DNA from: an uncultured SAR86 cluster bacterium
GTDB taxonomy: Bacteria; Pseudomonadota; Gammaproteobacteria; Magnimaribacterales; AG-339-G14
Reading direction: 5' to 3'
DNA length: 64,000 nt
Assembly: GCA_902528485.1 (NCBI GenBank)
Contig: CABZTA010000002.1
Span: 559 to 64,558, forward strand
Shown: positions 19,595 to 39,312 of the stretch, piece after piece
Layout of the letters: every line of letters starts with the position of its first letter
How positions within the stretch are numbered: the stretch's first letter is position 1
Program-made: the position numbers and the translations under genes
Notes under the pieces: model-generated
What the model was told of the DNA's origin: nothing
The model's input: only the letters and a program-made list of their open reading frames with translations
Databases searched by the model: none

Positions 19595-20451
19595 TATTCA
19601 GTAACATAAAAATTGGAATTATTGGGCATGGATTTGTAGGAGAAGCAACAGAAAAAGGATTTCCAAAAATAAATGAAAAATTCATTGTTGATCCAAAGCA
19701 TGGAACCGATATCAACAAACTGAAAAAATTCAAACCTGATTTCATTTTTATTTGTGTTCCAACGCCAATGAATATAGATGGCAGTCAAGATTCCTCAATT
19801 GTATTTGATGTTTTTAGCAAATTGAAAAATAATTTTAAGGGTGTACCAAAGATTCTAAAAAGTACCTTTTTACCAAATAATTTAAGCTCTTTAAATTCTG
19901 AAATAGATTCCTTAGTTTACAATCCAGAATTTTTAAGAGAAAAACATGCCGAGGAGGATTTTATTAACTCTCCTTTTGTGATTCTAGGTGGGGACAAGAT
20001 AATTTGTAAAAGAGTAGAAAATTTATATAAAAATTATTCTGCATGTAAAACAAAAAATTATATTTTTGTGGATATAGAAACAGCGTCATTAATCAAATAT
20101 TCAATAAACTCTTATTTGGCATCGAAAGTTTTATTCTTTAATGGAATAAGGGATATTTTCGATAATTTAAAATCAGAAATTGACTGGGATGATTTCATTC
20201 AAATATTATCCTTGGATAAAAGAATTGGTAATTCTCATATGTCAGTTCCTGGTCATGATGGCAAAAAAGGTTTTGGTGGCGCTTGTTTCACGAAAGATAC
20301 TGCAGCTTTTCTAAAATATTCTGACGAGATTGGCGAAAAATTTCTTTTTCTTGATTCTGCAATAAACATTAATAACTCTATAAGAAGCAAATATGATGAG
20401 TTGGATCAAAGAGAAAAAGAACAAAATGTTAATTATGATTCTGATAACTGA
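19591..20451 (+). CDS. UDP-glucose/GDP-mannose dehydrogenase-family protein, short form lacking the C-terminal UDP-binding domain
   Basis: 286 aa. Rossmann motif IGIIGHGFVG, then FICVPTP, YNPEFLREKHAEEDF and the catalytic-Cys motif GGACFTKDT. The protein ends about 100-150 aa earlier than canonical Ugd. Confidence 0.65.
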   Translation: MIFSNIKIGIIGHGFVGEATEKGFPKINEKFIVDPKHGTDINKLKKFKPDFIFICVPTPMNIDGSQDSSIVFDVFSKLKNNFKGVPKILKSTFLPNNLSSLNSEIDSLVYNPEFLREKHAEEDFINSPFVILGGDKIICKRVENLYKNYSACKTKNYIFVDIETASLIKYSINSYLASKVLFFNGIRDIFDNLKSEIDWDDFIQILSLDKRIGNSHMSVPGHDGKKGFGGACFTKDTAAFLKYSDEIGEKFLFLDSAININNSIRSKYDELDQREKEQNVNYDSDN

Positions 20452-20456
20452 ATGAC

Positions 20457-21509
20457 TTAAAGAAGCAAATTTGACACAAATTTTGCTATGGCTAGGCTTG
20501 AGGTTACTCCGGGACTTTCAATTCCTTGTAAATTTACAAATCCTTCCAAACTATGATCCTTGGGACCAATTATGCTGAAATCTCTCATATTTTCAGATTT
20601 ATTTTGGATCTTTGGTCTAATTCCAACGTAGTCTTCATTAAGTTTATCTGAATCTAGGTCAGGCCAATAAGCTTTGATGCTTTTTATAAATCTTTCTTTA
20701 GCATTAATTTCAAATTTATAATCTAAATCTTTTACCCACACAAGATCTGGACCAAATCGTAATTGACCAGACATATCAAATCCTACATGAATACCCAAAG
20801 AAGATTCTGAATTTATTGGATAAACCAAATTAGTAAAGGGATGTTGCCCGGTATATTTAAAATAATGTCCTTTTGCATAATAGAGAGGATGTAAAAGTTC
20901 TTTTGGAAGAAAACTGAAATTTTTTGAGGTCTCGTAGGATTGAAGACCTGAGGCATTGATCAACAGTTTGGACTTAATTTTGAATTTTTCTGATGAATCA
21001 CAATAGATTTCAAAGTCATTGCAATTTTTTTTCACTTTTAAGCATTTCGTATTGAAAGAAATTAATCCATCATTTTGCCAAATATCAAATTCCAATGATT
21101 TTATTAATTCTGGTACATCGATGATTCCTGTATTAGGAGAAAAAATACCTGAAACAGCTGATAAATAAGGTAATTTCTCTTTTAAGTCTGTTTTACTTAT
21201 TATTTCTAAATCAACCGAATTTTTTTTTCCATTTTCATAAATTTGAATTAACTTTTTTTCTTCAGATTCATTCGTAGAGACAATATATTTCCCTATTTTT
21301 TTATGGGGTATATTTTTCTTCCTAGCATAATGATAAAGAAGATTATTTCCTTCTACACACAGCTTAGCCTTCAAACTATTTTCTGGATAATACATGCCAG
21401 CATGAATCACTCCGGAATTTCTTGAAGATGTAGATTCTCCTGATCTTTTTTCTTTCTCCAAAACAACTATCTGTAAACCTTCCTCAGATAAATGTTTTGC
21501 AATTGCCAA
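20457..21509 (-). CDS. FAD-dependent oxidoreductase, L-2-hydroxyglutarate oxidase (LhgO/COG0579)-like. The true start is probably upstream of the track start.
   Basis: [28 protein letters not shown] resembles LhgO [21 protein letters not shown]. The dinucleotide-binding motif IIGAGVIGL is encoded at 21510-21536, upstream of the TTG at 21509 (see finding). Confidence 0.7.
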   Translation of the reverse strand: [350 protein letters not shown]

Positions 21510-21652: not shown

Positions 21653-22525
21653 GTGATGAAAATTTCAAAAGCAATCATTCCTGTAGCAGGGTTAGGTACT
21701 AGGATGTTACCTGCTACAAAAGCAATACCCAAAGAACTTCTTCCTGTAGTGGATAAACCGGTCATTCAATATGTTGTTGAAGAAGCAGCGCTTTCTGGAA
21801 TTGAGCAGATTATATTTGTGACCAGAAGTGGCAAAGATGCAATTGAAAATCATTTCGATGGTAATTATGAGTTAGAACATATTTTGGAAACAAAAGGAAA
21901 AAAAAGGATATTAGGATCAATAAAAAATATGATCCCAAAAAACATAAAAATATCCTCAATTAGACAAGAGAAAGCTCTAGGCTTAGGCGATGCCATTCTG
22001 AATGCCAAACATTTATTAAATCAAGAACCCTTTGCAATATTTTTACCCGATGAATTGCTTATCTCTAAAAATAAAGATTCTAGTTTTTTTAAAATGATGA
22101 ATCACTGGGATAATACTAATCAGGGACAGATAATGGTTCAAAAAATAAATAAAAAATTTACAAAAAGCTATGGAATTGTTGATTTAAATAATAAGAAAAT
22201 AAAGATAAATGAAACTCAAGAAATAAAAAAACTAGTTGAAAAGCCTAATCCCGTTGATTCACCTTCTAATTATAGAGTTGTAGGAAGATACATACTTCCA
22301 TATGAGATTATGGAGATATTAGAAAGAACTAATTTCGGAAAAGATAACGAAATACAACTAACTGACGCTTTGGATAATCTACTCAAAAACACTAAATTAA
22401 GTGCATTTTTAACAGACGATGATATTTTTGATTGTGGAGAAATTAAAGGCTTCATTGGGGCAAATGTTGCTGTTGCATCAAAAGATAAAGATTTGAAGAA
22501 ATATATGGAGAATATTATAAATTAG
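21653..22525 (+). CDS. galU: UTP--glucose-1-phosphate uridylyltransferase
   Basis: KAIIPVAGLGTRMLPATKAIPKELLPVVDKPVIQYVVEEA is the GalU signature. GTG 21653 and ATG 21656 are both possible starts. Confidence 0.93.
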   Translation: MMKISKAIIPVAGLGTRMLPATKAIPKELLPVVDKPVIQYVVEEAALSGIEQIIFVTRSGKDAIENHFDGNYELEHILETKGKKRILGSIKNMIPKNIKISSIRQEKALGLGDAILNAKHLLNQEPFAIFLPDELLISKNKDSSFFKMMNHWDNTNQGQIMVQKINKKFTKSYGIVDLNNKKIKINETQEIKKLVEKPNPVDSPSNYRVVGRYILPYEIMEILERTNFGKDNEIQLTDALDNLLKNTKLSAFLTDDDIFDCGEIKGFIGANVAVASKDKDLKKYMENIIN

Positions 22526-22611
22526 CCCGGGTGGTGGAATTGGTAGACACAAGGGACTTAAAATCCCTCGAAGGCAACTTCGTGCCGGTTCAAGTCCGGC
22601 CCCGGGTACCA
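22525..22611 (+). tRNA. tRNA-Leu (anticodon UAA), CCA encoded
   Basis: Acceptor GCCCGGG/CCCGGGT, D arm with GGAATTGGTAGA, anticodon arm AGGGA-CTTAAAA-TCCCT, long variable arm CGAAG..CTTCG, and T arm GCCGG-TTCAAGT-CCGGC followed by ACCA. 87 nt. Confidence 0.93.
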
Positions 22612-22617
22612 TTTTAA

Positions 22618-23301
22618 ATGAAAACTATATCAATCATTCTCTCTAGGGGAGGTAGTAAGGGATTAAAATCAAAAAATATTCTTCCCTTCAATGGAAAACC
22701 CCTTTTATTTTGGACTATTGATCAATTAAAAAAATCAAATGAGGTTGACGAAATTTTTTTATCATCTGATTCAGAAGAAATTCTTGATATAGGAAGAGAT
22801 GAGGATATCAACTTAATAGAAAGACCCTCAAAATTCTCACAAGATTCATCATCATCCGAATCTGCATGGAAACACTCAATAGAATGCATAGATTGTGATG
22901 AGGAAGATTTGATTATTGCTCCTCAAGTAACTTCTCCGTTGAGGTTAAAAAACGATTTTGATAACGCCTTAGAATATTTTAATGAGAAATCCTTAGATTC
23001 TCTCTTTTCTGCTGTAAAATTCGAAGATGAATGCTCATGGGTTGAAGATGAAAATGAAATAGTTCCATCAAACTATGACCCAAGTAACCGGAAAAGGAGG
23101 CAAGAAACAAAGTCTACTATAGTTGAGAATGGTTCTTTTTATATTTTTAAATCAGGAAAGTTTTTGAAAAATATGAATAGATTTGTTGGAAAAAAAGACT
23201 ATTTCCTAATGAAGCATTGGCAACTTTTTGAAATAGATGATCGAGAAACCTTTGATATGTGTGAGAAGCTAATGCAAACCTTTATGATAAAAAATGACTA
23301 G
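22618..23301 (+). CDS. Acylneuraminate cytidylyltransferase-family CMP-ulosonic acid synthetase (NeuA-like)
   Basis: 227 aa. The N-terminal SIILSRGGSKGLKSKNILPFNGKPLL is the NeuA/CMP-NeuAc synthetase signature. Confidence 0.8.
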   Translation: MKTISIILSRGGSKGLKSKNILPFNGKPLLFWTIDQLKKSNEVDEIFLSSDSEEILDIGRDEDINLIERPSKFSQDSSSSESAWKHSIECIDCDEEDLIIAPQVTSPLRLKNDFDNALEYFNEKSLDSLFSAVKFEDECSWVEDENEIVPSNYDPSNRKRRQETKSTIVENGSFYIFKSGKFLKNMNRFVGKKDYFLMKHWQLFEIDDRETFDMCEKLMQTFMIKND

Positions 23302-24268
23302 AAAAGTTTATATGAACGGAAGTTTTGTAGACGAGCAAGACGCAAAAGTTTCCATATATGATTCTTCTTTAATGTTTGGAGATATGGTTTTTGAAATGAC
23401 TAGATCTTTTAATGGGGAACAATTTAAATTGAGAGAACATATTAAAAGATTACTTACAGGTATAAAAATATTTAGGATTCCTCTAGAAGAAACTGAAGAT
23501 AGTATTTATGAAAAATGTCTTTTAACGATCGATCAAAATAAAGGCGAATTTAAAGATGATGATGAGCATCGTTTAATGATTGATGTTTCGAGAGGTCTCC
23601 TAGATATTTATAAAGGCGTTGACGGTCTTCACAAAGAAGCAAATTTAATAATTGCAGATTTTCCATTAAGATGGACAGTTAAAAGCATGGGAATACTTTT
23701 TGATCAAGGTATAAATGCTTTTATTTCTTCACAAAGAGCAATTCCTGCAAGATATCTAGATCCTAAGATTAAAAATAGAAGCAGAGTTTTTTATTTGATG
23801 GCTAACATTGAAGCTGCTCAAGTCAGATATCCTAATACCTGGGCTTTGATGCTCGACGATGATGGATATATAACAGAAGGTACAGGAGATAACTTTTTTA
23901 TTATAAAAGATGGCGTAGTAATAACTCCTGAAGGAAGAAATATACTCAGGGGAATATCCCGAGATTATGTAATTTATGAACTTTGTAAAGAATTAAAACT
24001 CGAATGCGTTCAAAAGAATATAGAGCCTTATGATGTTTATAATGCAGACGAAGCATTTATGACAGGTACTCCCTTCTGCATGCTTCCAGTGACCTCATTA
24101 AATGAACTTCAAATTGGAAGTGGAGAGAGAGGCCCAATTTTTAATTTGATTTTAAAGAAATGGTCAGAAAATATTGGCCTGGATATTGAAAGTCAAATTA
24201 AATCCTGGGATGAAGGAAATAATGATAAAAATATTGGAACTTCACCCTATCAGTTTTCAAAAAAATAA
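23294..24268 (+). CDS. Fold-type IV (class IV) aminotransferase, branched-chain/D-amino-acid aminotransferase-like
   Basis: 324 aa. DPKIKNRSR (lysine region), EGTGDNFFIIKDGVVITPEGRNILRGISRDYV and ADEAFMTGT match the class IV pattern. Confidence 0.8.
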   Translation: MTRKVYMNGSFVDEQDAKVSIYDSSLMFGDMVFEMTRSFNGEQFKLREHIKRLLTGIKIFRIPLEETEDSIYEKCLLTIDQNKGEFKDDDEHRLMIDVSRGLLDIYKGVDGLHKEANLIIADFPLRWTVKSMGILFDQGINAFISSQRAIPARYLDPKIKNRSRVFYLMANIEAAQVRYPNTWALMLDDDGYITEGTGDNFFIIKDGVVITPEGRNILRGISRDYVIYELCKELKLECVQKNIEPYDVYNADEAFMTGTPFCMLPVTSLNELQIGSGERGPIFNLILKKWSENIGLDIESQIKSWDEGNNDKNIGTSPYQFSKK

Positions 24269-25101
24269 TGAATTTTTTGGGAGTAATGCAGGGAAGATTA
24301 CTTCCTAAGTATAAAAATAGATATCAGTCACATCCGGTTGGATACTGGCAGGATGAATTTATCATTGCTAAAGAATTTGGATTGAATTTAATTGAGTTCA
24401 TTGTTGACTATGAAGATGTAGAAAAAAATCCTTTACTCAGTAATGAAGGCATTGAAGAGATTTCTTCACTCTCAAAAAAAAATGAAGTTATGGTGAGGAC
24501 TCTTTGTGCAGATTTTTTTATGGAGGCTCCTTTGCATAGCGAGGATTTGTATCAAAGACAAAAAAGTAAAGATATACTAAAACGATTATCTTTGTCTTGT
24601 AAGCATCTAGGAATTACTGAAATTGTAATTCCTTGTGTGGATCATTCTTCTTTTCAAAATAAAAATCAAATATCCATTTTTAAGGATGTCTTAAATGATG
24701 TGATTGGTGATTCGCCAGTTGAAGTAAATTTCTCTCTAGAAACCGACTTAGGACCGAAAGATTTTGCTGATTTAGTTGATTATTTTGATAATTCTAGGGT
24801 AGGAGTAAATTATGATATTGGAAATAGTGCATCTCTTGGATTTAACTGTAGCGAGGAGATTGAAGCCTACGGTCATTATATAAACGATGTTCATATCAAA
24901 GATAGACGATATAAATCTGATTCAGTTTTTCTTGGAGATGGAGATGCTGATTTTCATATGGTTTTTGAAAAATTATCAAAAATTGGATATAAAGGGCCTT
25001 TCATAATGCAGGCATATAGAGATATGGAAGGGAAAAATGTATTTAAAAGCCAACTTGATTGGATTTTGCCAATTCTTCAAACTTATTTTGTTCTTGCTTA
25101 A
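24268..25101 (+). CDS. Xylose isomerase-like TIM-barrel protein (sugar-phosphate isomerase/epimerase family)
   Basis: 277 aa. The alternating beta/alpha pattern, with IEF(I/V)VD, LETD and NYDIGNS segments, is typical of AP-endonuclease-2/xylose-isomerase-like barrels. Confidence 0.55.
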   Translation: MNFLGVMQGRLLPKYKNRYQSHPVGYWQDEFIIAKEFGLNLIEFIVDYEDVEKNPLLSNEGIEEISSLSKKNEVMVRTLCADFFMEAPLHSEDLYQRQKSKDILKRLSLSCKHLGITEIVIPCVDHSSFQNKNQISIFKDVLNDVIGDSPVEVNFSLETDLGPKDFADLVDYFDNSRVGVNYDIGNSASLGFNCSEEIEAYGHYINDVHIKDRRYKSDSVFLGDGDADFHMVFEKLSKIGYKGPFIMQAYRDMEGKNVFKSQLDWILPILQTYFVLA

Positions 25102-25106
25102 CTCTT

Positions 25107-25847
25107 ATGTCGAAAGAAAAACTAAATGTTTTAGTAACTGGATCATCCAGAGGAATTGGATTCGCAATAGCAAAGGAGTTTGCTGCGAATGGTTACAAAG
25201 TAATATTAAATGGTAGAGATGAAAATTCACTGAAGAGGGCTTCTAGAGAACTTAACACAGATTATTTTTTAGGTGATGTTTCAGATCCTCAAATTGCTAA
25301 AAAAATGGTTAAGTACTGTGTTTCTGAGTTCGGTGATTTAAATGCTTTAATATGCAACGTCGGAAGCGGAAAATCTCATCAACCTGGAAAAGAGAATAAT
25401 GATGAGTGGAAAAAAATGTTTGATGTGAATTTTTTGAGTACAACAAATGTTATTGAAAGCTCTGTAAAAACATTATCAAAAACGAAGGGTTCAATTGTTT
25501 GTATCTCCTCAATTTGTGGAGTAAAGCCTATAAATTCTGCTCCTGTTACTTACTCTGTAGCAAAAGCTGCATTAAATTTTTATGTCCATGCTTACTCAAA
25601 ATATCTTGGAACAAAAGGGGTTAGAATTAATTCTGTAGCACTAGGAAACATTCAGTTTCCAGGATCTACATGGGAAGAAAAATTAAAAAAAAATAAAAAA
25701 CAAGTTGAAGATATGTTGAAAAATGAAGTTGCTTTGACAAGGTTTGGGAATACAGACGATGTTTCCAAAACTGTCTTTTTTTTGAGCTCTGATGAAGCTA
25801 AATTTATAACAGGAGCTACTTTGATTGCTGACGGCGGCCAAGTATAA
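25107..25847 (+). CDS. Short-chain dehydrogenase/reductase
   Basis: Start at ATG 25107 (MSKEKLNVLVTGSSRGIGFAIA). Active-site YSVAKAA. 246 aa. Confidence 0.85.
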   Translation: MSKEKLNVLVTGSSRGIGFAIAKEFAANGYKVILNGRDENSLKRASRELNTDYFLGDVSDPQIAKKMVKYCVSEFGDLNALICNVGSGKSHQPGKENNDEWKKMFDVNFLSTTNVIESSVKTLSKTKGSIVCISSICGVKPINSAPVTYSVAKAALNFYVHAYSKYLGTKGVRINSVALGNIQFPGSTWEEKLKKNKKQVEDMLKNEVALTRFGNTDDVSKTVFFLSSDEAKFITGATLIADGGQV

Positions 25848-25855
25848 ATACTATC

Positions 25856-26683
25856 ATGCTAGAAAAATTTAATTTAAGTGGAAAAACAGTTCTTATTACT
25901 GGCGCTGCCGGAATACTGGGAAAAGAACATGCTGAGGCCCTATTGGAGGTAAATTCATCACTAATACTCACAGATATTGATCAAAAAAAATTACTTAATT
26001 TACAAGATCATCTTTACAAAAAATATGATTCTAAAAAAATCCATATTTTTAAAATGGATGTTTCTGATCCAGATTCAGTGTTCGAAGTCTCAAAAAAGTT
26101 AGATAATTCAAACATCTTTGTCGATATCTTAATAAATAATGCGTCTATTGATGCTAAATTTGATAATGGAAACCTCCCAACGGGGACAAGGCTTGAAAAT
26201 TTCTCTTTAAAGCAATGGGAAGAAGAAATTTCTGTAGGATTAACTGGTTGTTTTCTATGTTGCAAGGTTTTCGGTACAAAAATGGCAAAATCTAACAAAA
26301 ATGGCGTGATCATTAATATTGCATCTGATCTATCAGTGATTTCTCCAGATCAAAGATTATACTTAGATGAGTCTCTTCCAGAAGATGAACAAAAAGTAAA
26401 ACCTATTACATATTCCGTCATAAAGTCAGCTTTGGTTGGCATGACCAAATATTTATCCACATACTGGATTGATGGCAACGTTAGAGTAAACTCTCTATCG
26501 CCTGGAGGAATTTTTAATAATCAAGATGAGGAATTTGTTAATAGGATTTCAAAACTAATTCCATTAGGAAGAATGGCAGCTTCTGATGAATATAGATCTG
26601 CAATACAATTCCTTTGCTCAGATGCTTCAAGCTATTTAAATGGCCAAAATATTGTAATGGATGGAGGCAGATCAGTATGGTAG
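25856..26683 (+). CDS. Short-chain dehydrogenase/reductase
   Basis: VLITGAAGILGKEH, NNAS and YSVIKSA motifs. 275 aa. Confidence 0.85.
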   Translation: MLEKFNLSGKTVLITGAAGILGKEHAEALLEVNSSLILTDIDQKKLLNLQDHLYKKYDSKKIHIFKMDVSDPDSVFEVSKKLDNSNIFVDILINNASIDAKFDNGNLPTGTRLENFSLKQWEEEISVGLTGCFLCCKVFGTKMAKSNKNGVIINIASDLSVISPDQRLYLDESLPEDEQKVKPITYSVIKSALVGMTKYLSTYWIDGNVRVNSLSPGGIFNNQDEEFVNRISKLIPLGRMAASDEYRSAIQFLCSDASSYLNGQNIVMDGGRSVW

Positions 26684-27270
26684 AAGATCTTAAATTTTTA
26701 GAAAAAAAATTAAATCTACGATCAAATTTAATCAAAGAAAATATCAGTGATATTGGTGAATCAATTGTTTCAATATCTATGCTTGTAACAGATGTAATAA
26801 AAAATAAGGGAAAATTAATGTTTTGTGGAAATGGTGGCAGTGCTGCTGAGTGTCAGCATATGTCAGCTGAATACTGCGCAACTTTAGATCATAAAAGACC
26901 TAGGGAAGGAATGTCCTCAATCTCATTGACAACAGATACTTCCTTTTTAACAGCTTGGACAAACGATTTTGGGTATAAAAATATTTTTTCTAGGCAAGTT
27001 TTAACTTTAGGGGAAAAAAAAGATTTATTATTTTGTTACTCCACAAGTGGAAACAGTGAAAATGTTTGTGAGGCAGCAAAACAAGCTAAAAAAATTGGAA
27101 TTAAGGTAGTAGGATTTACAGGAAACCATGAAGAAATGGTTTTAGAAAACTATTGTGACTTGATTTTTAGATCGCCCTCTAAGGAGACACCAATAATTCA
27201 AGAATTTCATACGATTGCAGGTCATGAAATCTGTTCAATAGTTGAGAATAATATTTTTTTTAAAAAATGA
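26677..27270 (+). CDS. gmhA: SIS-domain sedoheptulose-7-phosphate isomerase (GmhA-like)
   Basis: Start at ATG 26677. CGNGGSAAECQHMSAEY, TTDTSFLTAWTNDFGY..FSRQV and YSTSGNSENV match the GmhA pattern. Confidence 0.8.
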   Translation: MVEDLKFLEKKLNLRSNLIKENISDIGESIVSISMLVTDVIKNKGKLMFCGNGGSAAECQHMSAEYCATLDHKRPREGMSSISLTTDTSFLTAWTNDFGYKNIFSRQVLTLGEKKDLLFCYSTSGNSENVCEAAKQAKKIGIKVVGFTGNHEEMVLENYCDLIFRSPSKETPIIQEFHTIAGHEICSIVENNIFFKK

Positions 27271-27731
27271 ATTTCGAAGCAATTTTTTATGATTTCGATG
27301 GCGTAATGACCGACAATACTGTACAGATTTCTCAAGATGGTTCTGAGTTTGTGAGAGTCAATCGAGGGGATGGATTGGCTATTTCAGAAATTAAAAAATT
27401 AAAAATTTACCAAGCTATAATCTCTACAGAAAAAAATCCAGTAGTTAAGGCCAGGTCAGAAAAACTTCAAATCCCATGCTTTCAAGGTGTCTTGAACAAA
27501 CTTAATGAGGTAAATAATATCTGCGAAGCAAAAAAGATTAATCTTAAGAATTCAGCATTTATTGGAAACGATATTAATGACAAAGAAGTCATGGAGTCTA
27601 TTGGTTTATCAGCTTGTCCTTCAGATTCAAACCAGACTATATTAGGCATTTCAGATATCATATTGCAATCCAAGGGCGGAGATGGAGTAATCCGGGAATT
27701 TTATGATTACATTTTAGGAGAAATAAGATGA
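27267..27731 (+). CDS. HAD-IIIA phosphatase of the KdsC family (ulosonate-phosphate phosphatase)
   Basis: 154 aa. FDFDGVMTD, RDG-like GDGLAI and GNDINDKEVMESIGLSACPSDS align with E. coli KdsC LDVDGVLSD ... GDDLIDWPVMEKVGLSVAVADA. Confidence 0.8.
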   Translation: MNFEAIFYDFDGVMTDNTVQISQDGSEFVRVNRGDGLAISEIKKLKIYQAIISTEKNPVVKARSEKLQIPCFQGVLNKLNEVNNICEAKKINLKNSAFIGNDINDKEVMESIGLSACPSDSNQTILGISDIILQSKGGDGVIREFYDYILGEIR

Positions 27732-28561
27732 GTATTTATATAGTTGGAGAGATAGGAATAAACCATAATGGAGACATTGAGATAGCAAAATCACTTATAG
27801 ATGAAGCTAAAGTAGCTGGAGCCGACGCTGTAAAATTTCAGAAACGAAATATAGATTTAGTTTATTCTAAGAGTACATTAGATGCTCTCAGGGATAGTCC
27901 TTGGGGAACGACTCAAAGAGAACAAAAACAGGGGTTAGAATTTAATCAAGATAACTATGAAGAGATTGATAATTATTGCAAAGAGAAAGAAATCGAATGG
28001 TTTGCTTCGGCTTGGGATCTCGATAGCCAAGAGTTTTTGAGAGGTTTTGATTGTAAAAAAAATAAAATTGCATCTGCAATGCTTATTTATGATGATTTAC
28101 TCCACATGGTTGCAGATGAAAAAAAACATACTTTTATTTCAACAGGGATGGCTTCAATGGATGATATTTCCAATGCAGTAAAAATCTTTGAGGATAAAAA
28201 TTGCCCTTTCGAACTTATGCATACTGTCTCTACTTATCCAATGGATGAAAAGAATGCAAATTTAAAAGTAATTGAAACTCTCAGAAAAAAGTTTAATTGT
28301 GACGTTGGATATAGTGGGCACGAGAGTGGTTTGGCTGTTTCTTATGCAGCTGCTGCTATGGGAATTACTTCTCTAGAAAGGCACATTACTCTTGACAGAG
28401 CAATGTATGGTTCTGATCAAGCAGCATCACTAGAACCCTCTGGTTTTAAGCAACTTATTGGGGCGGTAAGAAAAATTGAGCTTGCAATGGGAGATGGTGT
28501 TAAAAGGTTTATTGATGATGAGAAGCCTATTGCAGAAAAACTGAGAGAACATATTAATTAA
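27728..28561 (+). CDS. NeuB-family PEP-condensing ulosonic acid (phosphate) synthase, without the C-terminal SAF domain
   Basis: 277 aa. IVGEIGINHNGDIEIAKSLIDEAKVAGADAVKFQKR and GYSGHESG are NeuB signatures. The protein ends where the SAF/antifreeze-like domain of about 346-aa NeuB proteins would begin. Confidence 0.8.
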   Translation: MSIYIVGEIGINHNGDIEIAKSLIDEAKVAGADAVKFQKRNIDLVYSKSTLDALRDSPWGTTQREQKQGLEFNQDNYEEIDNYCKEKEIEWFASAWDLDSQEFLRGFDCKKNKIASAMLIYDDLLHMVADEKKHTFISTGMASMDDISNAVKIFEDKNCPFELMHTVSTYPMDEKNANLKVIETLRKKFNCDVGYSGHESGLAVSYAAAAMGITSLERHITLDRAMYGSDQAASLEPSGFKQLIGAVRKIELAMGDGVKRFIDDEKPIAEKLREHIN

Positions 28562-28575
28562 TATCAACTTCGTAA

Positions 28576-29325
28576 ATGAAAAACATTATTGTAAGCGGTG
28601 GTTTTGATCCTATCCACATTGGCCACCTTAGAATGTTTCAAGAGGCTAAAAAACTTGGAGATAATTTAATTGTTATTCTTAATAATGATAATTTTCTAAA
28701 AGATAAAAAAGGATTTATTTTTATGCCTTGCTCAGAGAGAAAAGAAATACTGGAGGGTTTTGAATGTGTTGATAGGGTTTTTACCTCAATTGATAAAGAC
28801 TCCACTGTAGTAGAGACAATAAGAGAAATAACTAAAGAAATAAAAATTCATATATTCGCAAATGGAGGAGATCGAAGGAGTGATCTTGACATCCCAGAAG
28901 CTAAAATTTGTTCGGAGCTTGGAATTGATCTTGTCTTTAATATTGGGGGAGGAAAAATACAATCAAGTTCTGATCTGGCAAAAATTGAAACAAAAAAGCC
29001 TTGGGGTAATTATCGAACATTTGAAAAAAGAAATGGTTATTTATCTAAAAGAATAACAGTTAATCCTAATCAGAGTCTTTCTCTTCAATCTCATAATGAA
29101 AGATCAGAATTTTGGATAGTAACTGAGGGAATCGCTACTGTTATCTGTGATGAAAAACAATTAACTTTGAATAAAGGTCAACACATTTTTATTCCATTGA
29201 AATCCAAACATAGATTAGAGAACAGAGAAACTAACGTTCTTGAGATAGTTGAGATCCAATTTGGCGACCATTTAAGTGAAGAAGATATAATAAGATATGA
29301 AGATCATTACGGAAGAGTGCCATGA
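28576..29325 (+). CDS. Fusion of an HxGH cytidylyl/adenylyltransferase domain with a type II phosphomannose-isomerase cupin
   Basis: N-terminal GGFDPIHIGHLRMFQEAKKLGD. The C-terminal PWGNYRTFEKRNGYLSKRITVNPNQSLSLQSHNERSEFWIV...EIVEIQFGDHLSEEDIIRYEDHYGR closely parallels the C-terminus of ManC/AlgA/XanB. Confidence 0.8.
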   Translation: MKNIIVSGGFDPIHIGHLRMFQEAKKLGDNLIVILNNDNFLKDKKGFIFMPCSERKEILEGFECVDRVFTSIDKDSTVVETIREITKEIKIHIFANGGDRRSDLDIPEAKICSELGIDLVFNIGGGKIQSSSDLAKIETKKPWGNYRTFEKRNGYLSKRITVNPNQSLSLQSHNERSEFWIVTEGIATVICDEKQLTLNKGQHIFIPLKSKHRLENRETNVLEIVEIQFGDHLSEEDIIRYEDHYGRVP

Positions 29326-30299
29326 ATGTTCTTGTTACAGGAGGATCTGGATTTATCGGATGCCATTTAATAAAAAATTTGCTGAATGAAGGTCATGCTG
29401 TAACTGTAATCGATAATTTTAGTACAGGTCGAAAAGAAAATCTTTCTGACTCTTTAAACAAAATAAAGCTAATTGAAGCAGATATTTCTATTCGAGGGGA
29501 ATGGTGTAAAGCATTTAAAAATATCGATTGGGTTGTCCATCTAGCTGCTCTTGCAGACATAGTCCCATCTATTGAGAAACCTAGTGATTATTTCGAGGCT
29601 AATGTCACAGGAACACTAAATGTTCTAGATGCATCTAGAAAATATGGAATAAAGAAATTAATTTATACTGCTTCTTCCTCTTGTTATGGGATTCCAGATA
29701 ATTATCCTACAACAGAAGATCAGAAAATTGATACTAGATATCCTTACGCCCTAACTAAATATCTTGGAGAGCAGCTTGTTCTCCATTACGAAAAAGTTTA
29801 TAAAATTGAATCAGTGTCTTTAAGGCTTTTTAATGTTTATGGTACTAAATCAAGAACTTCTGGGACTTATGGTGCTGTTTTTGGAGTCTTCTTAGCACAG
29901 AAACTTTCTGGAAATCCTTTCACAGTTGTAGGAGATGGTAAACAAACCAGAGACTTTACTTATGTTACAGATGTTGTTGAAGCTATAAAAAAAGCCTTGC
30001 TAGCTAAGATCTCAGGAGAAATTATCAATATTGGTTCTGACAATACTTATACAGTTAATGAACTTGTAAAACTATTAAAAGGGGAGGTAGTTTATATTCC
30101 AAAGAGGCCAGGAGAGCCAGATTGCACTTGGGCCGATATCACAAAAGCAAAAGAATTATTAGGTTGGAGGCCAAAAGTTTCATTATCCGATGGAGTAAAA
30201 TTGCTATTAGATGATATAAATTATTGGAAAGACGCTCCTGTTTGGGATGAAAGATCAATAAGTGTTGCAACTAAGAGATGGTTTGAATATCTGAGTTAA
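29322..30299 (+). CDS. NAD-dependent nucleotide-sugar epimerase/dehydratase (extended SDR)
   Basis: VLVTGGSGFIGCHL, ASSSCYG and YALTKYLGE motifs. 325 aa. Confidence 0.8.
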   Translation: MNVLVTGGSGFIGCHLIKNLLNEGHAVTVIDNFSTGRKENLSDSLNKIKLIEADISIRGEWCKAFKNIDWVVHLAALADIVPSIEKPSDYFEANVTGTLNVLDASRKYGIKKLIYTASSSCYGIPDNYPTTEDQKIDTRYPYALTKYLGEQLVLHYEKVYKIESVSLRLFNVYGTKSRTSGTYGAVFGVFLAQKLSGNPFTVVGDGKQTRDFTYVTDVVEAIKKALLAKISGEIINIGSDNTYTVNELVKLLKGEVVYIPKRPGEPDCTWADITKAKELLGWRPKVSLSDGVKLLLDDINYWKDAPVWDERSISVATKRWFEYLS

Positions 30300-30302
30300 T
30301 TT

Positions 30303-31823
30303 ATGTCTAGCAAAATTGTTCAATTGGAAACCTTGAAGAAAATAAGCTTGGATTTAAAAAAAGATGGGAAAAGAATCATTCATTGTCATGGTGTTTTTGA
30401 TCTTCTTCATATAGGTCACATTAAACATTTTTCTGAAGCAAAAAAGAAAGGAGATATTCTAATAGTTACTCTTACTTCAGATGAATTTGTGAATAAAGGG
30501 CCAAACCGGCCCGCTTTTAAAATTTCACATAGGCTTGAATCAATTTCATCATTGGAAGATGTTGATTATGTGGCTGAAAACAAATGGCCTACTGCTGAGA
30601 AAACAATCCAGATTATCAAACCTGATATTTATTTCAAAGGTCCTGACTATAAAGAAAATGAAAAGGATGTCACTGGCAATATAAAGAAAGAGATTTCATC
30701 TTTAAAAAAATATGGTGGGAAGATTGAATACTCAAAATCAATTACATTCAGTTCAAGTAATCTTATTAATAAATACTCAGATCTTTACAACGAGGATCAA
30801 AAAAATTTCCTAAAAGAAATATCTAATAATTTTGATGAAAACGATTTTCAAGAATCATTTAAAAAGTTTAGTGATTTAAAAATTCTTGTTATCGGCGAGA
30901 CAATTATAGATCAATATATTTTCTGTGAGACTATAGGGAAATCGGGAAAAGAGCCAATGTTGGTTCTTCGTGAACTGGAGTCTAACAATTACTTAGGGGG
31001 AGCTGCTGCTGTGGCAAATCATTTGAGTGAATTTTCAAATAATATTTCATTTTTAACTTGTATTGGTCAAGCTAATACACTTTCAGATTTCATATCTAAT
31101 AATCTAAATAAAAAAATTAAGGCCAAGTATTTGAAGAAAAAAGATGCCCCTACAATACTTAAGAAGAGATTTATTGACAAAGTTAGTGGAAATAAAACAT
31201 TAGGAGTTTATTCGCTAAATGACGAAAATCTTCAGCCCCCTCAAGAAACAGTTGTTCTGAATCATTTAAAGGACATTAAAAAATATGATTTAGTGATTGT
31301 CGCTGACTATGGTCACGGTTTCATAACTAAAAAAATAGCTAACTTTATCTCTAAAACCTCTCCGTTTCTTTCTTTGAATGCACAAATCAACTCATCCAAT
31401 AGTGGGTTTCATTCTTTAAATAAATATTCAAAATGTGATTCTATAATCATTAATGAAAGTGAGTTAAGACATGAAATGCGCAGCCGACAAGGAGATCTTA
31501 AAAAGTTGATGTTAAAGCTTTCTCAAAATCATCGAGCGAATTATATTGTTGTTACTAGAGGAAATAAAGGCTCTCTTCTCTTCAATAGTAAAAAGAATGA
31601 ATTTATTGAATGCCCAGCTTTTGCTTCTAAATTAGTTGATAAAGTTGGCTCTGGAGATGCAATGTTGCCCATTTTATCTATGTCTTTAAAATCTAAATTA
31701 AAAGATAATATATCATTATGGTTCGGATCTTTGGCAGCTGCCCAATCGGTAGAATCTATTAGTAATAGTAAATGTGTAGATAAAACTGAAATGCTTAAAA
31801 CAATCCAGCACGCATTAAAATAA
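30303..31823 (+). CDS. Bifunctional heptose-phosphate nucleotidyltransferase / PfkB sugar kinase (HldE-like with inverted domain order)
   Basis: The N-terminal CHGVFDLLHIGHIKHF...SDEFVNKGPNRP resembles HldE domain II. The C-terminal ILVIGETIIDQY...LGGAAAVANHL...VGSGDAM resembles HldE domain I. Confidence 0.75.
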   Translation: MSSKIVQLETLKKISLDLKKDGKRIIHCHGVFDLLHIGHIKHFSEAKKKGDILIVTLTSDEFVNKGPNRPAFKISHRLESISSLEDVDYVAENKWPTAEKTIQIIKPDIYFKGPDYKENEKDVTGNIKKEISSLKKYGGKIEYSKSITFSSSNLINKYSDLYNEDQKNFLKEISNNFDENDFQESFKKFSDLKILVIGETIIDQYIFCETIGKSGKEPMLVLRELESNNYLGGAAAVANHLSEFSNNISFLTCIGQANTLSDFISNNLNKKIKAKYLKKKDAPTILKKRFIDKVSGNKTLGVYSLNDENLQPPQETVVLNHLKDIKKYDLVIVADYGHGFITKKIANFISKTSPFLSLNAQINSSNSGFHSLNKYSKCDSIIINESELRHEMRSRQGDLKKLMLKLSQNHRANYIVVTRGNKGSLLFNSKKNEFIECPAFASKLVDKVGSGDAMLPILSMSLKSKLKDNISLWFGSLAAAQSVESISNSKCVDKTEMLKTIQHALK

Positions 31824-31841
31824 AATTAATTTTATATAACT

Positions 31842-32819
31842 ATGAATATTTTTGTTACAGGTGGAGGAGGATACGTTGGATCATCATTAGTTCCCAAACT
31901 TCTAGAAGAGGGGCATAAAGTTACTGTTTATGACTTGATGATTTATGGAGAAGATGTTTTGAATTCTCATCAAAATCTTAAATTAGTTAAAGGGGACTTA
32001 AGAGACTTGGATTTACTAAAAAAATCCATTCCTAATAATGATGCTTTAATTCACTTGGCATGTATTTCAAATGATCCAAGTTTTGAACTAAACCCTGATC
32101 TAGGAAAATCAATAAACCTTGATTCATTTGAGCCGCTAGTAAAAATTGCTGAAGACTCTGGAATTAAAAGATTTTTAAATGCTTCCTCTTCTAGTGTTTA
32201 TGGCGTGAAAGATTCTGATAATGTTTATGAGGAAATGTCTTTGGAACCCCTTACAGATTACTCAAAATATAAAGCTCAGTGTGAGGATATTTTGATCAAA
32301 TATAATTCTAATAATTTCATTACATCTACAATTCGTCCAGCAACTGTATGCGGCTATTCAAAAAGACAACGGTTGGATGTTGTAGTAAACATTTTTACGA
32401 ATATTGCTTTTCATAAAAAAAGGATAACTGTTTTCGGCGGCGATCAATTAAGACCTAACATACATATTGAAGATATGGTTGATGCCTATGTGGCCATGTT
32501 AAATGCCTCAGATGAACAAATTTCTGGGAAAGTATTCAATGCAGGAGATGAAAATAAGACAGTCTTAGAACTAGCTCAAATTGTTAAAGAAGTCATCGGT
32601 CCTGATGTTGAATTGATTAAATCAAAAACGGACGACAATCGTTCCTATCACATTTCTTCCGAGAAAATAAAAAAAGAATTAGGCTTCTCCTGTAGCAAAA
32701 CTATAAAAAATGCAGTTGAGGATCTTAATGATGCCTTTATCAATAACAAACTAACTGATCCTATTGATAATGAATATTATTTTAATATCAAAAGAATGCA
32801 GAATCTTAATCTCAAGTAA
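31842..32819 (+). CDS. NAD-dependent nucleotide-sugar epimerase/dehydratase (extended SDR)
   Basis: IFVTGGGGYVGSSL, ASSSSVYG and YSKYKAQCE motifs. 325 aa. Confidence 0.8.
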   Translation: MNIFVTGGGGYVGSSLVPKLLEEGHKVTVYDLMIYGEDVLNSHQNLKLVKGDLRDLDLLKKSIPNNDALIHLACISNDPSFELNPDLGKSINLDSFEPLVKIAEDSGIKRFLNASSSSVYGVKDSDNVYEEMSLEPLTDYSKYKAQCEDILIKYNSNNFITSTIRPATVCGYSKRQRLDVVVNIFTNIAFHKKRITVFGGDQLRPNIHIEDMVDAYVAMLNASDEQISGKVFNAGDENKTVLELAQIVKEVIGPDVELIKSKTDDNRSYHISSEKIKKELGFSCSKTIKNAVEDLNDAFINNKLTDPIDNEYYFNIKRMQNLNLK

Positions 32820-32821
32820 AA

Positions 32822-34405
32822 ATGCTCATAGGTATCGATTTTGATAATACGATTGCCTGTTATGACAAAGTTTTTCAAGAAGTTGCAAAAAATCAAAAAA
32901 TTGTAAATAAAAATTGGATTGGTAACAAAACCGATCTTAAAAAATTAATTTTAAAATCAAAAAAAGGAAAGGAACTTTGGATGAAAATCCAAGGAATGGT
33001 TTACGGCCAATACATGAAAAATGCAGAGATCATGGATGGCTTCGTAAATTTTTTAAAAGTAACAAAACTGCTCGATGTCGATGTTTGCATAATTAGCCAC
33101 AAGACAAAATATGGTCACTTTGATAAAAATAAAATAGATCTGAGAAAAGAAGCTTTAAAATGGATTAAAAAAAATAAAATTTTGGATGCAAATAAAGTCT
33201 ACTTTGCTAATACAAGGGAAGAAAAAATATCTCTAATAAATGATTTAAAATGCGATATTTTTATAGATGATCTTATTGAAGTTCTAGACCATGATAATCT
33301 AAATAAAGATATCAAAAAGATTCACCTATCCTCAAGAAATTCCTCAAAAATAATAAATTTCTCAAACTGGCATGATATAAAAAAAAATATTTTCAAAAAT
33401 GATGAACATTTTATAAAAAAATGTTTTGAGAAAAATTCAGAAAACAAAATTTTACAAATTAATCCTGTTAAAGGAAGAGGTAACAGTAAAGTATTTAAAA
33501 TTAAAACTAAAAATAAAAATTTTGCTTTGAAGTTATATCCAGATAAAAACTTAGATCATAGGAAACGACAACAGATAGAATTTGAAGCCTTAAATCTTTT
33601 AATGAGAGAAGGATTTAAAAATATTCCCTCGACAGAATTTAAAAATGACGAATTGAATATATCAGCATTTACCTGGATCGAAGGTAATGAGCCTAAAAGA
33701 CTTAACCAAGATCATATAAACCAAGCTGTAAAGTTTATAAAAAAACTAAAAAAAATCTCATTAAGGAATAATTTTAAAAATAAAAAAGCTTCCGAAGCTT
33801 GTCTTTCCTATAATGAATTAATTAGGCAAATTTCTCATAAGAAAATAAATCTATTAGATAAAAATAAAAATGAGAAAATACTAATAAAGTTTATTTCAGA
33901 GAAGTTATCTCCCATCTCAAAAGAACTCATTCGAAAAGGGAAAATTACCTGGCCTCAAGAATCTAGAACTTTAAATTTACAATGGGATAAAAGAATTTTA
34001 AGTCCTTCAGATTTTGGCTTTCATAATTCTTTGGTAACTAAAGATAAGAAGCTTTATTTTATCGATTTTGATTATTTTGGCTGGGACGATCCTGTAAAAC
34101 TAATAGCTGATTTTTATTGGCATCCTGGCATGGACTTAAATTCATCATTAAAGAAGTTGTGGTTAAGTCAAACAAAAAAAATTTTTATAGATGACGACAT
34201 TTTTTTTAGTGATCGTCTTCACGCATCATTGCCATTATATGGAATTAGGTGGGTCTTGATCATTTTGAATATATTTGATGATAATGTTGCTTCTAGAAGA
34301 CTTCATGCAAATAAAATAAGTAAAACCGAGCTGAAAGAAATAAAAAAAATACAATTAGACAAAGCTGATAAAATGCTCGACAAAATTCTAAATTTTAATT
34401 TTTGA
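32822..34405 (+). CDS. HAD-like domain fused to an aminoglycoside/choline-kinase-like phosphotransferase domain
   Basis: N-terminal DxDxT motif (IGIDFDNTIA). The C-terminus has a kinase-like nucleotide-binding stretch (GRGNSKVFKIKT..FALKLY) and a catalytic region (SPSDFGFHNSL ... YFIDFDYFGWDDP). Confidence 0.6.
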   Translation: MLIGIDFDNTIACYDKVFQEVAKNQKIVNKNWIGNKTDLKKLILKSKKGKELWMKIQGMVYGQYMKNAEIMDGFVNFLKVTKLLDVDVCIISHKTKYGHFDKNKIDLRKEALKWIKKNKILDANKVYFANTREEKISLINDLKCDIFIDDLIEVLDHDNLNKDIKKIHLSSRNSSKIINFSNWHDIKKNIFKNDEHFIKKCFEKNSENKILQINPVKGRGNSKVFKIKTKNKNFALKLYPDKNLDHRKRQQIEFEALNLLMREGFKNIPSTEFKNDELNISAFTWIEGNEPKRLNQDHINQAVKFIKKLKKISLRNNFKNKKASEACLSYNELIRQISHKKINLLDKNKNEKILIKFISEKLSPISKELIRKGKITWPQESRTLNLQWDKRILSPSDFGFHNSLVTKDKKLYFIDFDYFGWDDPVKLIADFYWHPGMDLNSSLKKLWLSQTKKIFIDDDIFFSDRLHASLPLYGIRWVLIILNIFDDNVASRRLHANKISKTELKEIKKIQLDKADKMLDKILNFNF

Positions 34406-34406
34406 T

Positions 34407-35234: not shown

Positions 35235-35236
35235 AA

Positions 35237-39310: not shown

Positions 39311-39312
39311 AA

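Follow-up and report, generated by a model that had tools for sequence, protein, structure and literature searches.

Which sugar phosphate feeds a NeuB-type synthase whose gene is interlocked with those of a phosphatase and a GmhA-type isomerase? The question is raised by a 64,000-nucleotide stretch of DNA from an uncultured SAR86 cluster bacterium (GenBank assembly GCA_902528485.1, contig CABZTA010000002.1, positions 559 to 64,558), here called the window, which is near-identical to one contig of assembly GCA_902615285.1. Three open reading frames (ORFs) on the plus strand are at its center: a GmhA-type SIS isomerase of 197 amino acids (26677 to 27270; SIS_2, PF13580, E = 1.3e-21), a KdsC-family, cap-less HAD phosphatase of 154 amino acids (27267 to 27731; 120 bits against NF058599), and a NeuB-family synthase of 277 amino acids (27728 to 28561; PF03102 alone, E = 4.8e-70). 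All three lie where the original prediction had placed them, and domain searches agree with it; the assignments are strong matches, not chance. That prediction read the synthase and the phosphatase as a phosphate-dependent route to an acid like KDN (also written Kdn, a nine-carbon sugar acid), and it offered a heptose-7-phosphate supplied by GmhA as an alternative acceptor. We favor the alternative. With a probability of roughly 0.5, we propose that sedoheptulose-7-phosphate is isomerized to heptose-7-phosphate, which is condensed to a 10-carbon ulosonate phosphate, dephosphorylated, tailored, aminated, and converted to a cytidine monophosphate (CMP)-activated sugar.

The gene content and the frame overlaps are plain to see. 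The SIS and HAD frames share 4 nucleotides, as do the HAD and NeuB frames (ATGA in both cases), and the SIS frame overlaps that of the preceding dehydrogenase gene by 7 nucleotides (ATGGTAG), with a GGAGG 10 nucleotides 5′ of the SIS ATG. The synthase had been called translationally coupled to the phosphatase; the overlap behind this claim is present, and the coupling, which is read from the overlap, is plausible. A scan of the window for promoters and terminators gave nothing above chance.

Relatives of the synthase were scanned in one genome per species and are found in at least 590 species representatives. The best 80 of them belong to Gammaproteobacteria, SAR86, SAR116, Pelagibacteraceae (SAR11), and Prochlorococcus; to Magnetococcales, Planctomycetota, Elusimicrobiota, Omnitrophota, and Leptospirales; and to Lachnospiraceae, Roseburia, Clostridia, Nitrosopumilus, Thermoplasmatales, and Methanoperedens. 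NCBI names the family members merely “N-acetylneuraminate synthase family protein.” Cultured carriers include Alteromonas sp. a30 (L038) and Ferrithrix thermotolerans DSM 19514 (L029). Gene neighborhoods were counted in these best 80 of the at least 590 relatives (loci L010 to L089), whose synthases are 54 to 74% identical to that of the window, by running profile hidden Markov models built from the window genes on all ORFs of these loci.

Domain searches detect no SAF domain (PF08666) in the 277-amino-acid synthase. Its match to TIGR03569 spans model positions 2 to 274 of 329. The reading frame closes at 28561 and is followed, from 28576 on, by one that opens with a cytidylyltransferase-like domain unrelated to SAF; the absence of the SAF domain is thus genuine and not the result of a frameshift. 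The 120 nearest homologs among the matches listed (276 to 292 amino acids, at least 70% identity) likewise consist of PF03102 alone, so the SAF-less architecture named in the original prediction stands. The protein scores 253 bits against TIGR03569 (NeuB_NnaB; cutoff, 399.65) and 183 bits against TIGR03586 (PseI; cutoff, 340.25). Its GYSGH-E and ERH segments align with the LSDH-T and ERH segments of Neisseria meningitidis NeuB, where we take the metal-binding histidines to be His215 and His236 in N. meningitidis numbering.

Sequence motifs separate the window family from synthases that use free sugars. A K-[FM]-[QT]-K-R motif and an inserted [WYF]G-x-T…LE[FL] segment occur in the window synthase, in 81/81 family members, in BT1714 of Bacteroides thetaiotaomicron (as KMTKR), and in the enzymes of Prymnesium parvum and Streptomyces; G[YF]SGH and GSDQ/GTDH..SLEP are common to the same proteins. 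In the same alignment, these motifs are absent from N. meningitidis NeuB, PseI (8H2C), SpsE (1VLI), and 6NCS. We call them phosphosugar-type motifs, a class derived in this alignment from few references, two of them characterized enzymes, and one for which there is no published definition. Human NANS presumably has the same insertion. In pairwise comparisons, the window synthase is 31% identical both to BT1714 and to the P. parvum KDN-9-phosphate synthase, 28 to 34% identical to N. meningitidis NeuB, PseI, SpsE, and the SAF-less Leptospira structure 6NCS, and 46 to 49% identical (252 to 263 bits) to a SAF-less NeuB encoded after a 3MMZ-type phosphatase in Streptomyces. In neighbor-joining trees, which at ~30% identity are indicative only, the window family and the P. 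parvum enzyme are sisters, the family stands apart from the free-sugar synthases, and the window NeuB groups with none of N. meningitidis NeuB, PseI, and SpsE. A gene of the Epimerase_2 or PseG type, as would encode a 2-epimerase of the NeuC/LegG/PseG kind, was found neither within 21653 to 36157 nor among the recurrent neighbors of the 80 loci. In the proposed pathway, the synthase would condense phosphoenolpyruvate (PEP) with an aldose phosphate to give a 3-deoxy-2-ulosonate with a terminal phosphate.

That phosphate would be removed by the KdsC-type phosphatase. Its best NCBIfam match is the KDN-9-phosphate phosphatase model NF058599 (120.1 bits; cutoff, 180), and it reaches 101.6 bits against TIGR01670 (KdsC subfamily; cutoff, 106.95). 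Among PDB entries, it matches 3mmz from Streptomyces best (108 bits), BT1713 (3e81) with 94 bits, and Escherichia coli KdsC with 64 bits. It aligns end to end with BT1713, has the DxD nucleophile motif (equivalents of Asp10 and Asp12), and carries the BT1713 markers Glu56, Arg64, and Lys67; in E. coli KdsC, positions 56 and 67 are occupied by Arg and Thr. Of 39 HAD proteins of the module, 38 have Glu at position 56 and 35 have Lys or Arg at position 67; Glu56 and Lys67 are also the sites of the mutations in 4hgq and 4hgr, two deposited structures of BT1713. The gene adjoining the synthase is, as had been claimed, a KdsC-family phosphatase gene, and its product appears to be of the KDN-9-phosphate phosphatase type. 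Since the synthase motifs are shared with users of mannose-6-phosphate (Man-6-P) and the phosphatase has Glu56 and Lys67, we consider it very probable that the synthase acts on a phosphosugar and the phosphatase then on the resulting ulosonate phosphate. The phosphate-dependent route of the original prediction is well supported in this sense, also by the placement of the synthase outside the free-sugar enzymes.

The system with which the locus had been compared is the KDN pathway of B. thetaiotaomicron, in which BT1714 is the KDN-9-phosphate synthase, BT1713 the phosphatase, and BT1715 the CMP-KDN synthetase (PMC6200933). The P. parvum and BT1713 sequences were taken from the supplement of that paper, and BT1714 was located through the genomic neighborhood of BT1713. 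Like the window, the BT1713-BT1714-BT1715 locus has an adjacent phosphosugar NeuB-type synthase, a cap-less KdsC-family phosphatase with Glu56 and Lys67, and a CTP_transf_3 protein (PMC6200933). Unlike the window synthase, BT1714 has 346 amino acids and a SAF domain, and the B. thetaiotaomicron locus contains neither an isomerase gene nor tailoring genes. The analogy therefore holds for a synthase/phosphatase pair that would work on a phosphosugar and fails for the SAF-less trait, for which the P. parvum and Streptomyces enzymes are the relatives to consider. The P. parvum KDN-9-phosphate synthase is SAF-less (312 amino acids, PF03102 alone), has KFQKR and the insertion, and is the sister in the neighbor-joining tree; it differs from the window family in being eukaryotic and only 31 to 33% identical, in its insertion sequence (T-Y-G-A-H-R), and in having no linked phosphatase homolog (PMC6200933).

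A logic of isomerase, PEP condensation, phosphatase, and CMP-transferase is also that of 3-deoxy-D-manno-octulosonic acid (Kdo) synthesis by KdsD, KdsA, KdsC, and KdsB. One might suppose that the window encodes an alternative route to this eight-carbon sugar, with the SIS protein as an arabinose-5-phosphate isomerase, or a route to N-acetylneuraminic acid-9-phosphate from N-acetylmannosamine-6-phosphate (ManNAc-6-P), the acceptor of animal NANS. Both are very unlikely. The window synthase has the NeuB fold (PF03102) and is not a KdsA; the isomerase is SIS_2 alone, lacks the CBS domains of KdsD, and keeps the GmhA residues, so that it is of GmhA and not of KdsD/KpsF type; and the phosphatase has Glu and Lys where KdsC has Arg and Thr. 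What the window shares with the Kdo pathway is a working logic and not membership in its families. The conserved module contains no ManNAc-6-P-forming enzyme and no N-acetyltransferase, and the related P. parvum enzyme rejects both arabinose-5-phosphate and ManNAc-6-P (PMC6200933).

The choice of acceptor turns on the isomerase. The best PDB match of the window SIS protein is GmhA of Burkholderia pseudomallei (2xbl; 147 bits, ~50% identity over 156 residues), and it scores 149 bits against the gmhA model TIGR00441 (cutoff, 209.45) and 150 bits against NF010546 (cutoff, 276). GNGGS, His61, Glu65, [ST]TSGxS, Gln175, and His183, to which catalytic, zinc-binding, and sedoheptulose-7-phosphate-binding roles have been assigned in GmhA (PMC7705670, PMC4697000), are each kept in 43 to 46 of 47 module-linked SIS proteins. 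The window protein thus has the fold and all catalytic and substrate-binding residues of the GmhA enzymes of ADP/GDP-heptose biosynthesis; it differs in scoring below the equivalog cutoffs and in being partnered by a KdsC-type phosphatase and a NeuB-type synthase instead of a heptose kinase and a nucleotidyltransferase. As the first step of the pathway, it would convert a ketose phosphate to an aldose phosphate, most likely sedoheptulose-7-phosphate to the 7-phosphate of D-glycero-D-manno-heptose. With this acceptor, the backbone formed by the synthase would be a ten-carbon homolog of KDN.

Across the 80 loci, the SIS gene keeps company with the NeuB/KdsC pair and not with a kinase, although the window itself has a diverged HldE-like gene 3 kb downstream. 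A GmhA-like SIS gene lies near the synthase gene in 45/80 loci and a KdsC-like HAD gene in 37/80; the SIS-HAD-NeuB triad, whole or in part, is seen again in 58/80, in many phyla. There are minimal versions, in which the triad is followed by an epimerase gene (L001) or by a CTP_transf_3 gene (L004 and L010). In 13 loci, HAD (N-terminal half) and SIS (C-terminal half) are fused in one protein of 350 to 370 amino acids encoded beside the synthase. The fusions occur in Lachnospiraceae, Roseburia, Clostridia, and Syntrophorhabdus (Firmicutes loci L046, L050, L057, L058, L061, L065, L066, L071, L075, L080, and L082, plus L021 and L059). In the L046 fusion, the HAD half scores 109 bits on the KDN-9-phosphate phosphatase model, and the SIS half reaches 190 bits with the gmhA model (cutoff, 209) and 201 bits with NF010546. 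As the fusions are found in loci without a heptose kinase or nucleotidyltransferase, they tie the isomerase reaction to the pathway of the phosphatase.

The distribution of the isomerase among taxa points in the same direction. Monoderm bacteria and archaea normally have no housekeeping GmhA, while diderms could supply one. SIS is present in 19/23 monoderm or archaeal loci versus 26/57 diderm loci (Fisher p = 0.003) and HAD in 19/23 versus 18/57 (p = 5e-5), with the reservation, which weakens the case for a heptose acceptor, that these statistics rest on the taxon labels of metagenome-assembled genomes and on non-independent loci. The SIS-bearing loci are scattered over the whole synthase family tree. 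Among Pelagibacterales loci (L011, L036, L045, L048, L049, L053, L056, L067, L070, L077 to L079, and L087), SIS is near the synthase in 9/13 and HAD in 0/13; the phosphatase step would therefore be supplied from elsewhere in these streamlined genomes.

An archaeal locus adds a possible source of the substrate. Transketolase and transaldolase are the enzymes that make sedoheptulose-7-phosphate. In Methanoperedens (L088, 6135 to 11593), the gene order is GDP-mannose dehydratase, the N and C subunits of a split transketolase, a short homolog of transaldolase/fructose-6-phosphate aldolase (TIGR00875, 289 bits; cutoff, 246), SIS, a radical S-adenosylmethionine (SAM)/SPASM enzyme, the synthase, and a CMP-transferase, so that this cluster seems to carry its own sedoheptulose-7-phosphate supply. 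The window has a split transketolase in the same operon (N and C subunits, 34407 to 36157, plus strand; Transketolase_N, E = 1.6e-50, with Transket_pyr and Transketolase_C). It may supply sedoheptulose-7-phosphate or add a two-carbon unit, and its membership in the module is uncertain.

The most serious competitor of heptose-7-phosphate is Man-6-P. In a nine-carbon route of the KDN type, Man-6-P and PEP would give KDN-9-phosphate and then KDN, which would be tailored, aminated, and CMP-activated, and the GmhA-like protein would be a fructose-6-phosphate/Man-6-P isomerase or have some other role. The isomerizations of sedoheptulose-7-phosphate to heptose-7-phosphate and of fructose-6-phosphate to Man-6-P share a stereochemical course, which is established chemistry, and archaeal phosphoglucose/phosphomannose isomerases of the SIS fold exist. 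We know of no GmhA homolog with phosphomannose isomerase activity, and the sedoheptulose-7-phosphate-binding residues of GmhA are all retained here. Man-6-P is moreover a housekeeping metabolite, yet SIS is kept in most monoderm and archaeal loci and fused to the phosphatase in 13, and in L088 the SIS gene stands beside those of transketolase and the transaldolase homolog.

The loci whose product is likely to be KDN speak to the same point from both sides. Two Streptomyces loci (L097 and L098) resemble the window in having a SAF-less NeuB (310 to 312 amino acids) with KFQKR and GYSGHE and, directly 5′ of it and overlapping, a KdsC-type HAD gene whose product has Glu56 and Lys67, in the same HAD-then-NeuB order. 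Streptomyces cell walls contain a KDN-containing teichulosonic acid (PMC11481543), attributed to the cluster SCO4873-SCO4882 (PMC13011467), and L097 and L098 are probably this cluster. Unlike the window, they have no GmhA-like gene and no set of xylose-isomerase-fold, dehydrogenase, and aminotransferase genes, but a polysialyltransferase-like gene instead. Their synthases fall outside the 80-member family and have T-Y-I-D-Y-R instead of T-Q-R-x-Q-K in the insertion. Bacteroidales loci around BT1713-type phosphatases (L091 to L096, four distinct gene contexts) contain no SIS gene either. A dedicated isomerase is therefore not needed for KDN. The insertion, a putative sugar-phosphate-binding element, likewise follows this division: the KDN-linked synthases (BT1714, P. 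parvum, and Streptomyces) have T-Y-[IG]-x-[YH]-R, not the T-[QTN]-R-x-Q-K of the family, in which Arg64 is kept in 78/81 members, Gln66 in 80/81, and Lys67 in 81/81. Set against its merits, these findings leave the nine-carbon route a doubtful though serious possibility. With SIS kept alongside the synthase and the phosphatase, fused to the latter, and missing from the KDN-type loci, comparative genomics supports the heptose-7-phosphate alternative of the original prediction better than its KDN reading.

Several observations nevertheless weigh against a ten-carbon product. Animal NANS uses ManNAc-6-P, which is also a hexose-6-phosphate, and all characterized members of the phosphosugar-type NeuB group use a hexose-6-phosphate. 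BT1714 and the P. parvum synthase use Man-6-P, the latter strictly so (PMC6200933). The relatives with known chemistry are linked to KDN: the closest with a likely known product, that of Streptomyces at 46 to 49% identity, is associated with the nine-carbon acid, as are the P. parvum enzyme and BT1714 at 31%. The phosphatase markers are those of the KDN-9-phosphate phosphatase, the model of which is its best NCBIfam match. The window SIS protein scores below the GmhA equivalog cutoff and could have shifted to fructose-6-phosphate, or GmhA could serve, additionally or instead, a heptose-nucleotide branch that includes the HldE-like gene and the epimerase genes downstream. Linkage of the split transketolase is infrequent (7/80 loci) and open to other readings. 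Finally, in the literature searched by name, no deculosonic acid of the 3-deoxy type has been structurally described. For Magnetospirillum, CMP-activated C10 ulosonic acids have been reported from mass spectrometry in a 2026 preprint, which assigns no genes to them. We considered these acids as the product and rejected them: they fragment like legionaminic or pseudaminic acid plus CH2, with two N-acetyl groups, which suggests a different scaffold. The sole ten-carbon ulosonic acids reported by mass spectrometry thus appear, from what the fragments suggest, to be unlike the product proposed here.

The genes downstream of the synthase raise the further possibility that two unrelated pathways lie side by side, one in which GmhA, the HAD protein (as GmhB), the HldE-like protein, and the epimerases make a nucleotide-heptose, and another in which NeuB and the NeuA-like protein make a nonulosonic acid from a free sugar. 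GmhA is normally an enzyme of nucleotide-heptose synthesis, and between 28576 and 34405 the window does encode a cytidylyltransferase-like domain fused to a phosphomannose isomerase (PMI) cupin (28576 to 29325, plus strand; domain matches), an epimerase (29322), a diverged HldE-like protein with swapped domains (30303 to 31823; cytidylyltransferase-like N terminus and PfkB kinase C terminus; rfaE_dom_I, 132 bits; rfaE_dom_II, 98 bits), a second epimerase (31842), and a 527-amino-acid kinase-like protein (32822) with a weak APH kinase match alone. Gene types of this segment occur near the synthase in 0 to 2 of 46 well-flanked loci. Because they are not conserved with the synthase, these genes do look like a second pathway, which could lead to a heptose nucleotide or to a CDP-6-linked sugar, of which the CDP-6-glucitol described for Campylobacter jejuni is an example (PMC10918830). 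That GmhA and the phosphatase belong to it is unlikely. The phosphatase is of KdsC and not of GmhB type and has the ulosonate-phosphatase markers, the frames of SIS, HAD, and NeuB overlap, and triads and HAD-SIS fusions occur in loci without a kinase or heptose nucleotidyltransferase, HldE-like genes being found in ~2/80. As for the other half of this scenario, the synthase has phosphosugar-type motifs, and neither a 2-epimerase of the NeuC/LegG/PseG type nor a SAF domain is encoded between 21.6 and 36.2 kb.

The cupin at 28576 had been proposed as the source of Man-6-P. A PMI-cupin is indeed encoded there; it is not a plain cupin but part of the fusion just described, and such a gene is near the synthase in 1/80 loci. 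On both counts we rejected it as a Man-6-P supplier, and it appears to belong to the separate pathway.

How would the ulosonic acid be finished? Upstream of the triad and on the same strand lie five genes: a NeuA/PseF-like CMP-transferase gene (22618 to 23301; CTP_transf_3, PF02348, E = 1.3e-23; PseF model, 92 bits, below cutoff), whose presence in the operon had been correctly stated; a class IV aminotransferase gene (23294 to 24268; PF01063, E = 4.9e-44); a gene for a TIM-barrel enzyme of the xylose isomerase fold (24268 to 25101; PF01261, E = 1.1e-20; weakly similar to UlaE, an L-ribulose-5-phosphate 3-epimerase, 48 to 70 bits); and genes for two short-chain dehydrogenases/reductases (SDRs). 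The first SDR resembles FabG and glucose-1-dehydrogenase (25107 to 25847; adh_short_C2, E = 8.9e-47; the start is taken from the gene call in the near-identical contig L006). The second is similar to PtmA, gluconate-5-dehydrogenase, and KduD (25856 to 26683; PRK09186, 173 bits; gluconate 5-dehydrogenase, 129 bits; PtmA, 111 bits; KduD, 106 bits; all below cutoffs). The PtmA/PtmF branch of legionaminic acid synthesis in Campylobacter was considered as a model for this neighborhood and rejected, as PtmF, an oxidoreductase of 326 amino acids, does not belong to the SIS proteins and PtmA is matched only weakly.

These neighbors recur with the synthase. CTP_transf_3 is near it in 64/80 loci, the PtmA-like SDR in 48/80, the xylose-isomerase-fold enzyme in 41/80, the FabG-like SDR in 35/80, a class III aminotransferase in 23/80, a class IV aminotransferase in 12/80, an acetolactate synthase (ALS)-like thiamine diphosphate (ThDP) enzyme in 12/80, and a radical-SAM/SPASM enzyme in 9/80. 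With its eight genes from 22618 to 28561, the window thus has the full version of a recurrent module. Like residue conservation and gene fusion, this linkage across phyla is an observation; the catalytic steps, their order, the acceptor, and the position of the amino group are conclusions from sequence, and we word them as such.

Within the module, the NeuA-like enzyme would convert the acid to a CMP-sugar, and the four enzymes encoded from 23294 to 26683 (aminotransferase, xylose-isomerase-fold enzyme, and both SDRs) would oxidize, rearrange, and aminate the backbone before or after activation. The xylose-isomerase-fold enzyme would be an epimerase, isomerase, or dehydratase, and the PtmA-like SDR would act on a sugar acid. 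In 37 of its 41 loci, the xylose-isomerase-fold enzyme is accompanied by the PtmA-like SDR (p = 1e-8). An aminotransferase is present in all nine radical-SAM/SPASM loci and a xylose-isomerase-fold enzyme in none of them (p = 3e-4 and 9e-4); the radical-SAM/SPASM enzyme and the pair of xylose-isomerase-fold enzyme and SDR are alternative sets. From this pattern we infer that an alcohol of the sugar acid would be oxidized by the SDRs or by a BtrN-like radical-SAM enzyme and then transaminated. Such late oxidation and transamination is familiar from other systems, with KdnB and KdnA acting in this order to make 8-amino-8-deoxy-Kdo (Kdo8N) in Shewanella, and BtrN or NeoA working with an aminotransferase in aminoglycoside pathways; the module is like them in its logic, but the enzyme families differ.

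Two transaminase folds appear to serve the family. Class III and class IV aminotransferases are mutually exclusive (23 and 12 of the 80 loci, never both), and each is paired with a CMP-transferase subtype of its own; that of the window goes with class IV in 8/12 loci (p = 1.4e-4) and with class III in 1/23. The best PDB matches of the window class IV enzyme are branched-chain aminotransferases (160 bits) and R-selective amine transaminases, and the window CMP-transferase is 26% identical to the CMP-KDN synthetase of P. parvum. Possibly, the two folds give opposite configurations, each with a matched CMP-transferase. In the 12 loci with an ALS-like ThDP enzyme, mostly Firmicutes fusion loci, a CMP-transferase is found in 2/12, compared with 62/68 elsewhere (p = 3e-7), which hints that in these loci the alpha-keto acid may be decarboxylated or ligated and not CMP-activated.

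A second, distant NeuB paralog was observed in 9/80 loci (among them L010, L014, L034, L048, L054, and L078). It is 26 to 30% identical, in several cases long enough to include a SAF domain, and sometimes has its own CMP-transferase. Another such paralog, with a faint SAF match, is encoded in L001 (4661 to 5722, minus strand). In organisms with a second NeuB, adjacent gene sets probably lead to two distinct ulosonic acids.

Where the product is used is suggested by the wider surroundings. Flagellin together with a Maf-type gene is a classic setting of CMP-nonulosonate use. In a Clostridia locus, the module directly follows a flagellin gene and a Maf-type (MptE-like) gene and precedes the rest of a glycosylation island, and flagellin genes are found in five Firmicutes loci. 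In the window, the module lies inside a glycan island of ~37 kb that extends from just after rpsA-pyrF-ggt-uvrC-pgsA to an ABC exporter and Wzz, and the product would end up in a surface polysaccharide. The ggt-uvrC-pgsA junction is common to the window (13504 to 17460) and to a 1.25-Mb metagenomic contig (L004, 1 to 3627). The contents of the two islands differ, but they share a cassette of SIS, HAD, NeuB, CTP_transf_3, and class IV aminotransferase genes, a pattern typical of hypervariable surface-glycan islands that have a mobile cassette in common.

Other genes of the window island were noted in passing. A 286-amino-acid homolog of UDP-glucose/GDP-mannose dehydrogenases (19591 to 20451) keeps the N-terminal and central domains only in part and lacks the C-terminal one. 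Next comes a gene for a DAO-family flavin adenine dinucleotide-dependent oxidoreductase (20457 to 21509), which, among the island genes seen from 17.4 to 51.9 kb, is alone on the minus strand. Farther downstream (37874 to 43491), a row of genes encodes a UbiA-family prenyltransferase (478 amino acids), a 708-amino-acid protein without a Pfam match, a FAD_binding_4 protein, and a short-chain dehydrogenase. We take this row to resemble the mycobacterial arrangement of decaprenyl-phospho-ribose synthase and the DprE1/DprE2 epimerase, which hints at a sugar donor linked to polyprenyl phosphate in a marine bacterium of low GC content.

In the literature searched, we found no description of the SIS-HAD-NeuB module, and searches for nonulosonic acids in the taxa that carry it returned only unrelated papers. 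Extending the heptose-7-phosphate reading from the window to the whole family, we suggest, more tentatively than for the window itself, that its members make CMP-activated ten-carbon 3-deoxy-2-ulosonic (“deculosonic”) acids from sedoheptulose-7-phosphate, often aminated late, and that these sugars sit on the surface polysaccharides of SAR11, SAR86, Prochlorococcus, and Nitrosopumilus and on the flagellins of gut Lachnospiraceae such as Roseburia.

Sialic-acid-like sugars govern the recognition of microbial surfaces by phages, grazers, and the immune system, and relatives of the synthase of this module occur in at least 590 species representatives, some of which rank with the most abundant organisms of the ocean, while others are flagellated commensals of the gut. 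With heptose-7-phosphate as the acceptor, the module would represent the first route for the biosynthesis of a ten-carbon ulosonic acid and would provide a genetic handle on the unassigned “higher-carbon” ulosonic acids seen by mass spectrometry. Should its chemistry be that of KDN only, it would still be a widespread route that builds the backbone first and adds amino groups later, the opposite order to that of the neuraminic, legionaminic, and pseudaminic acid pathways.

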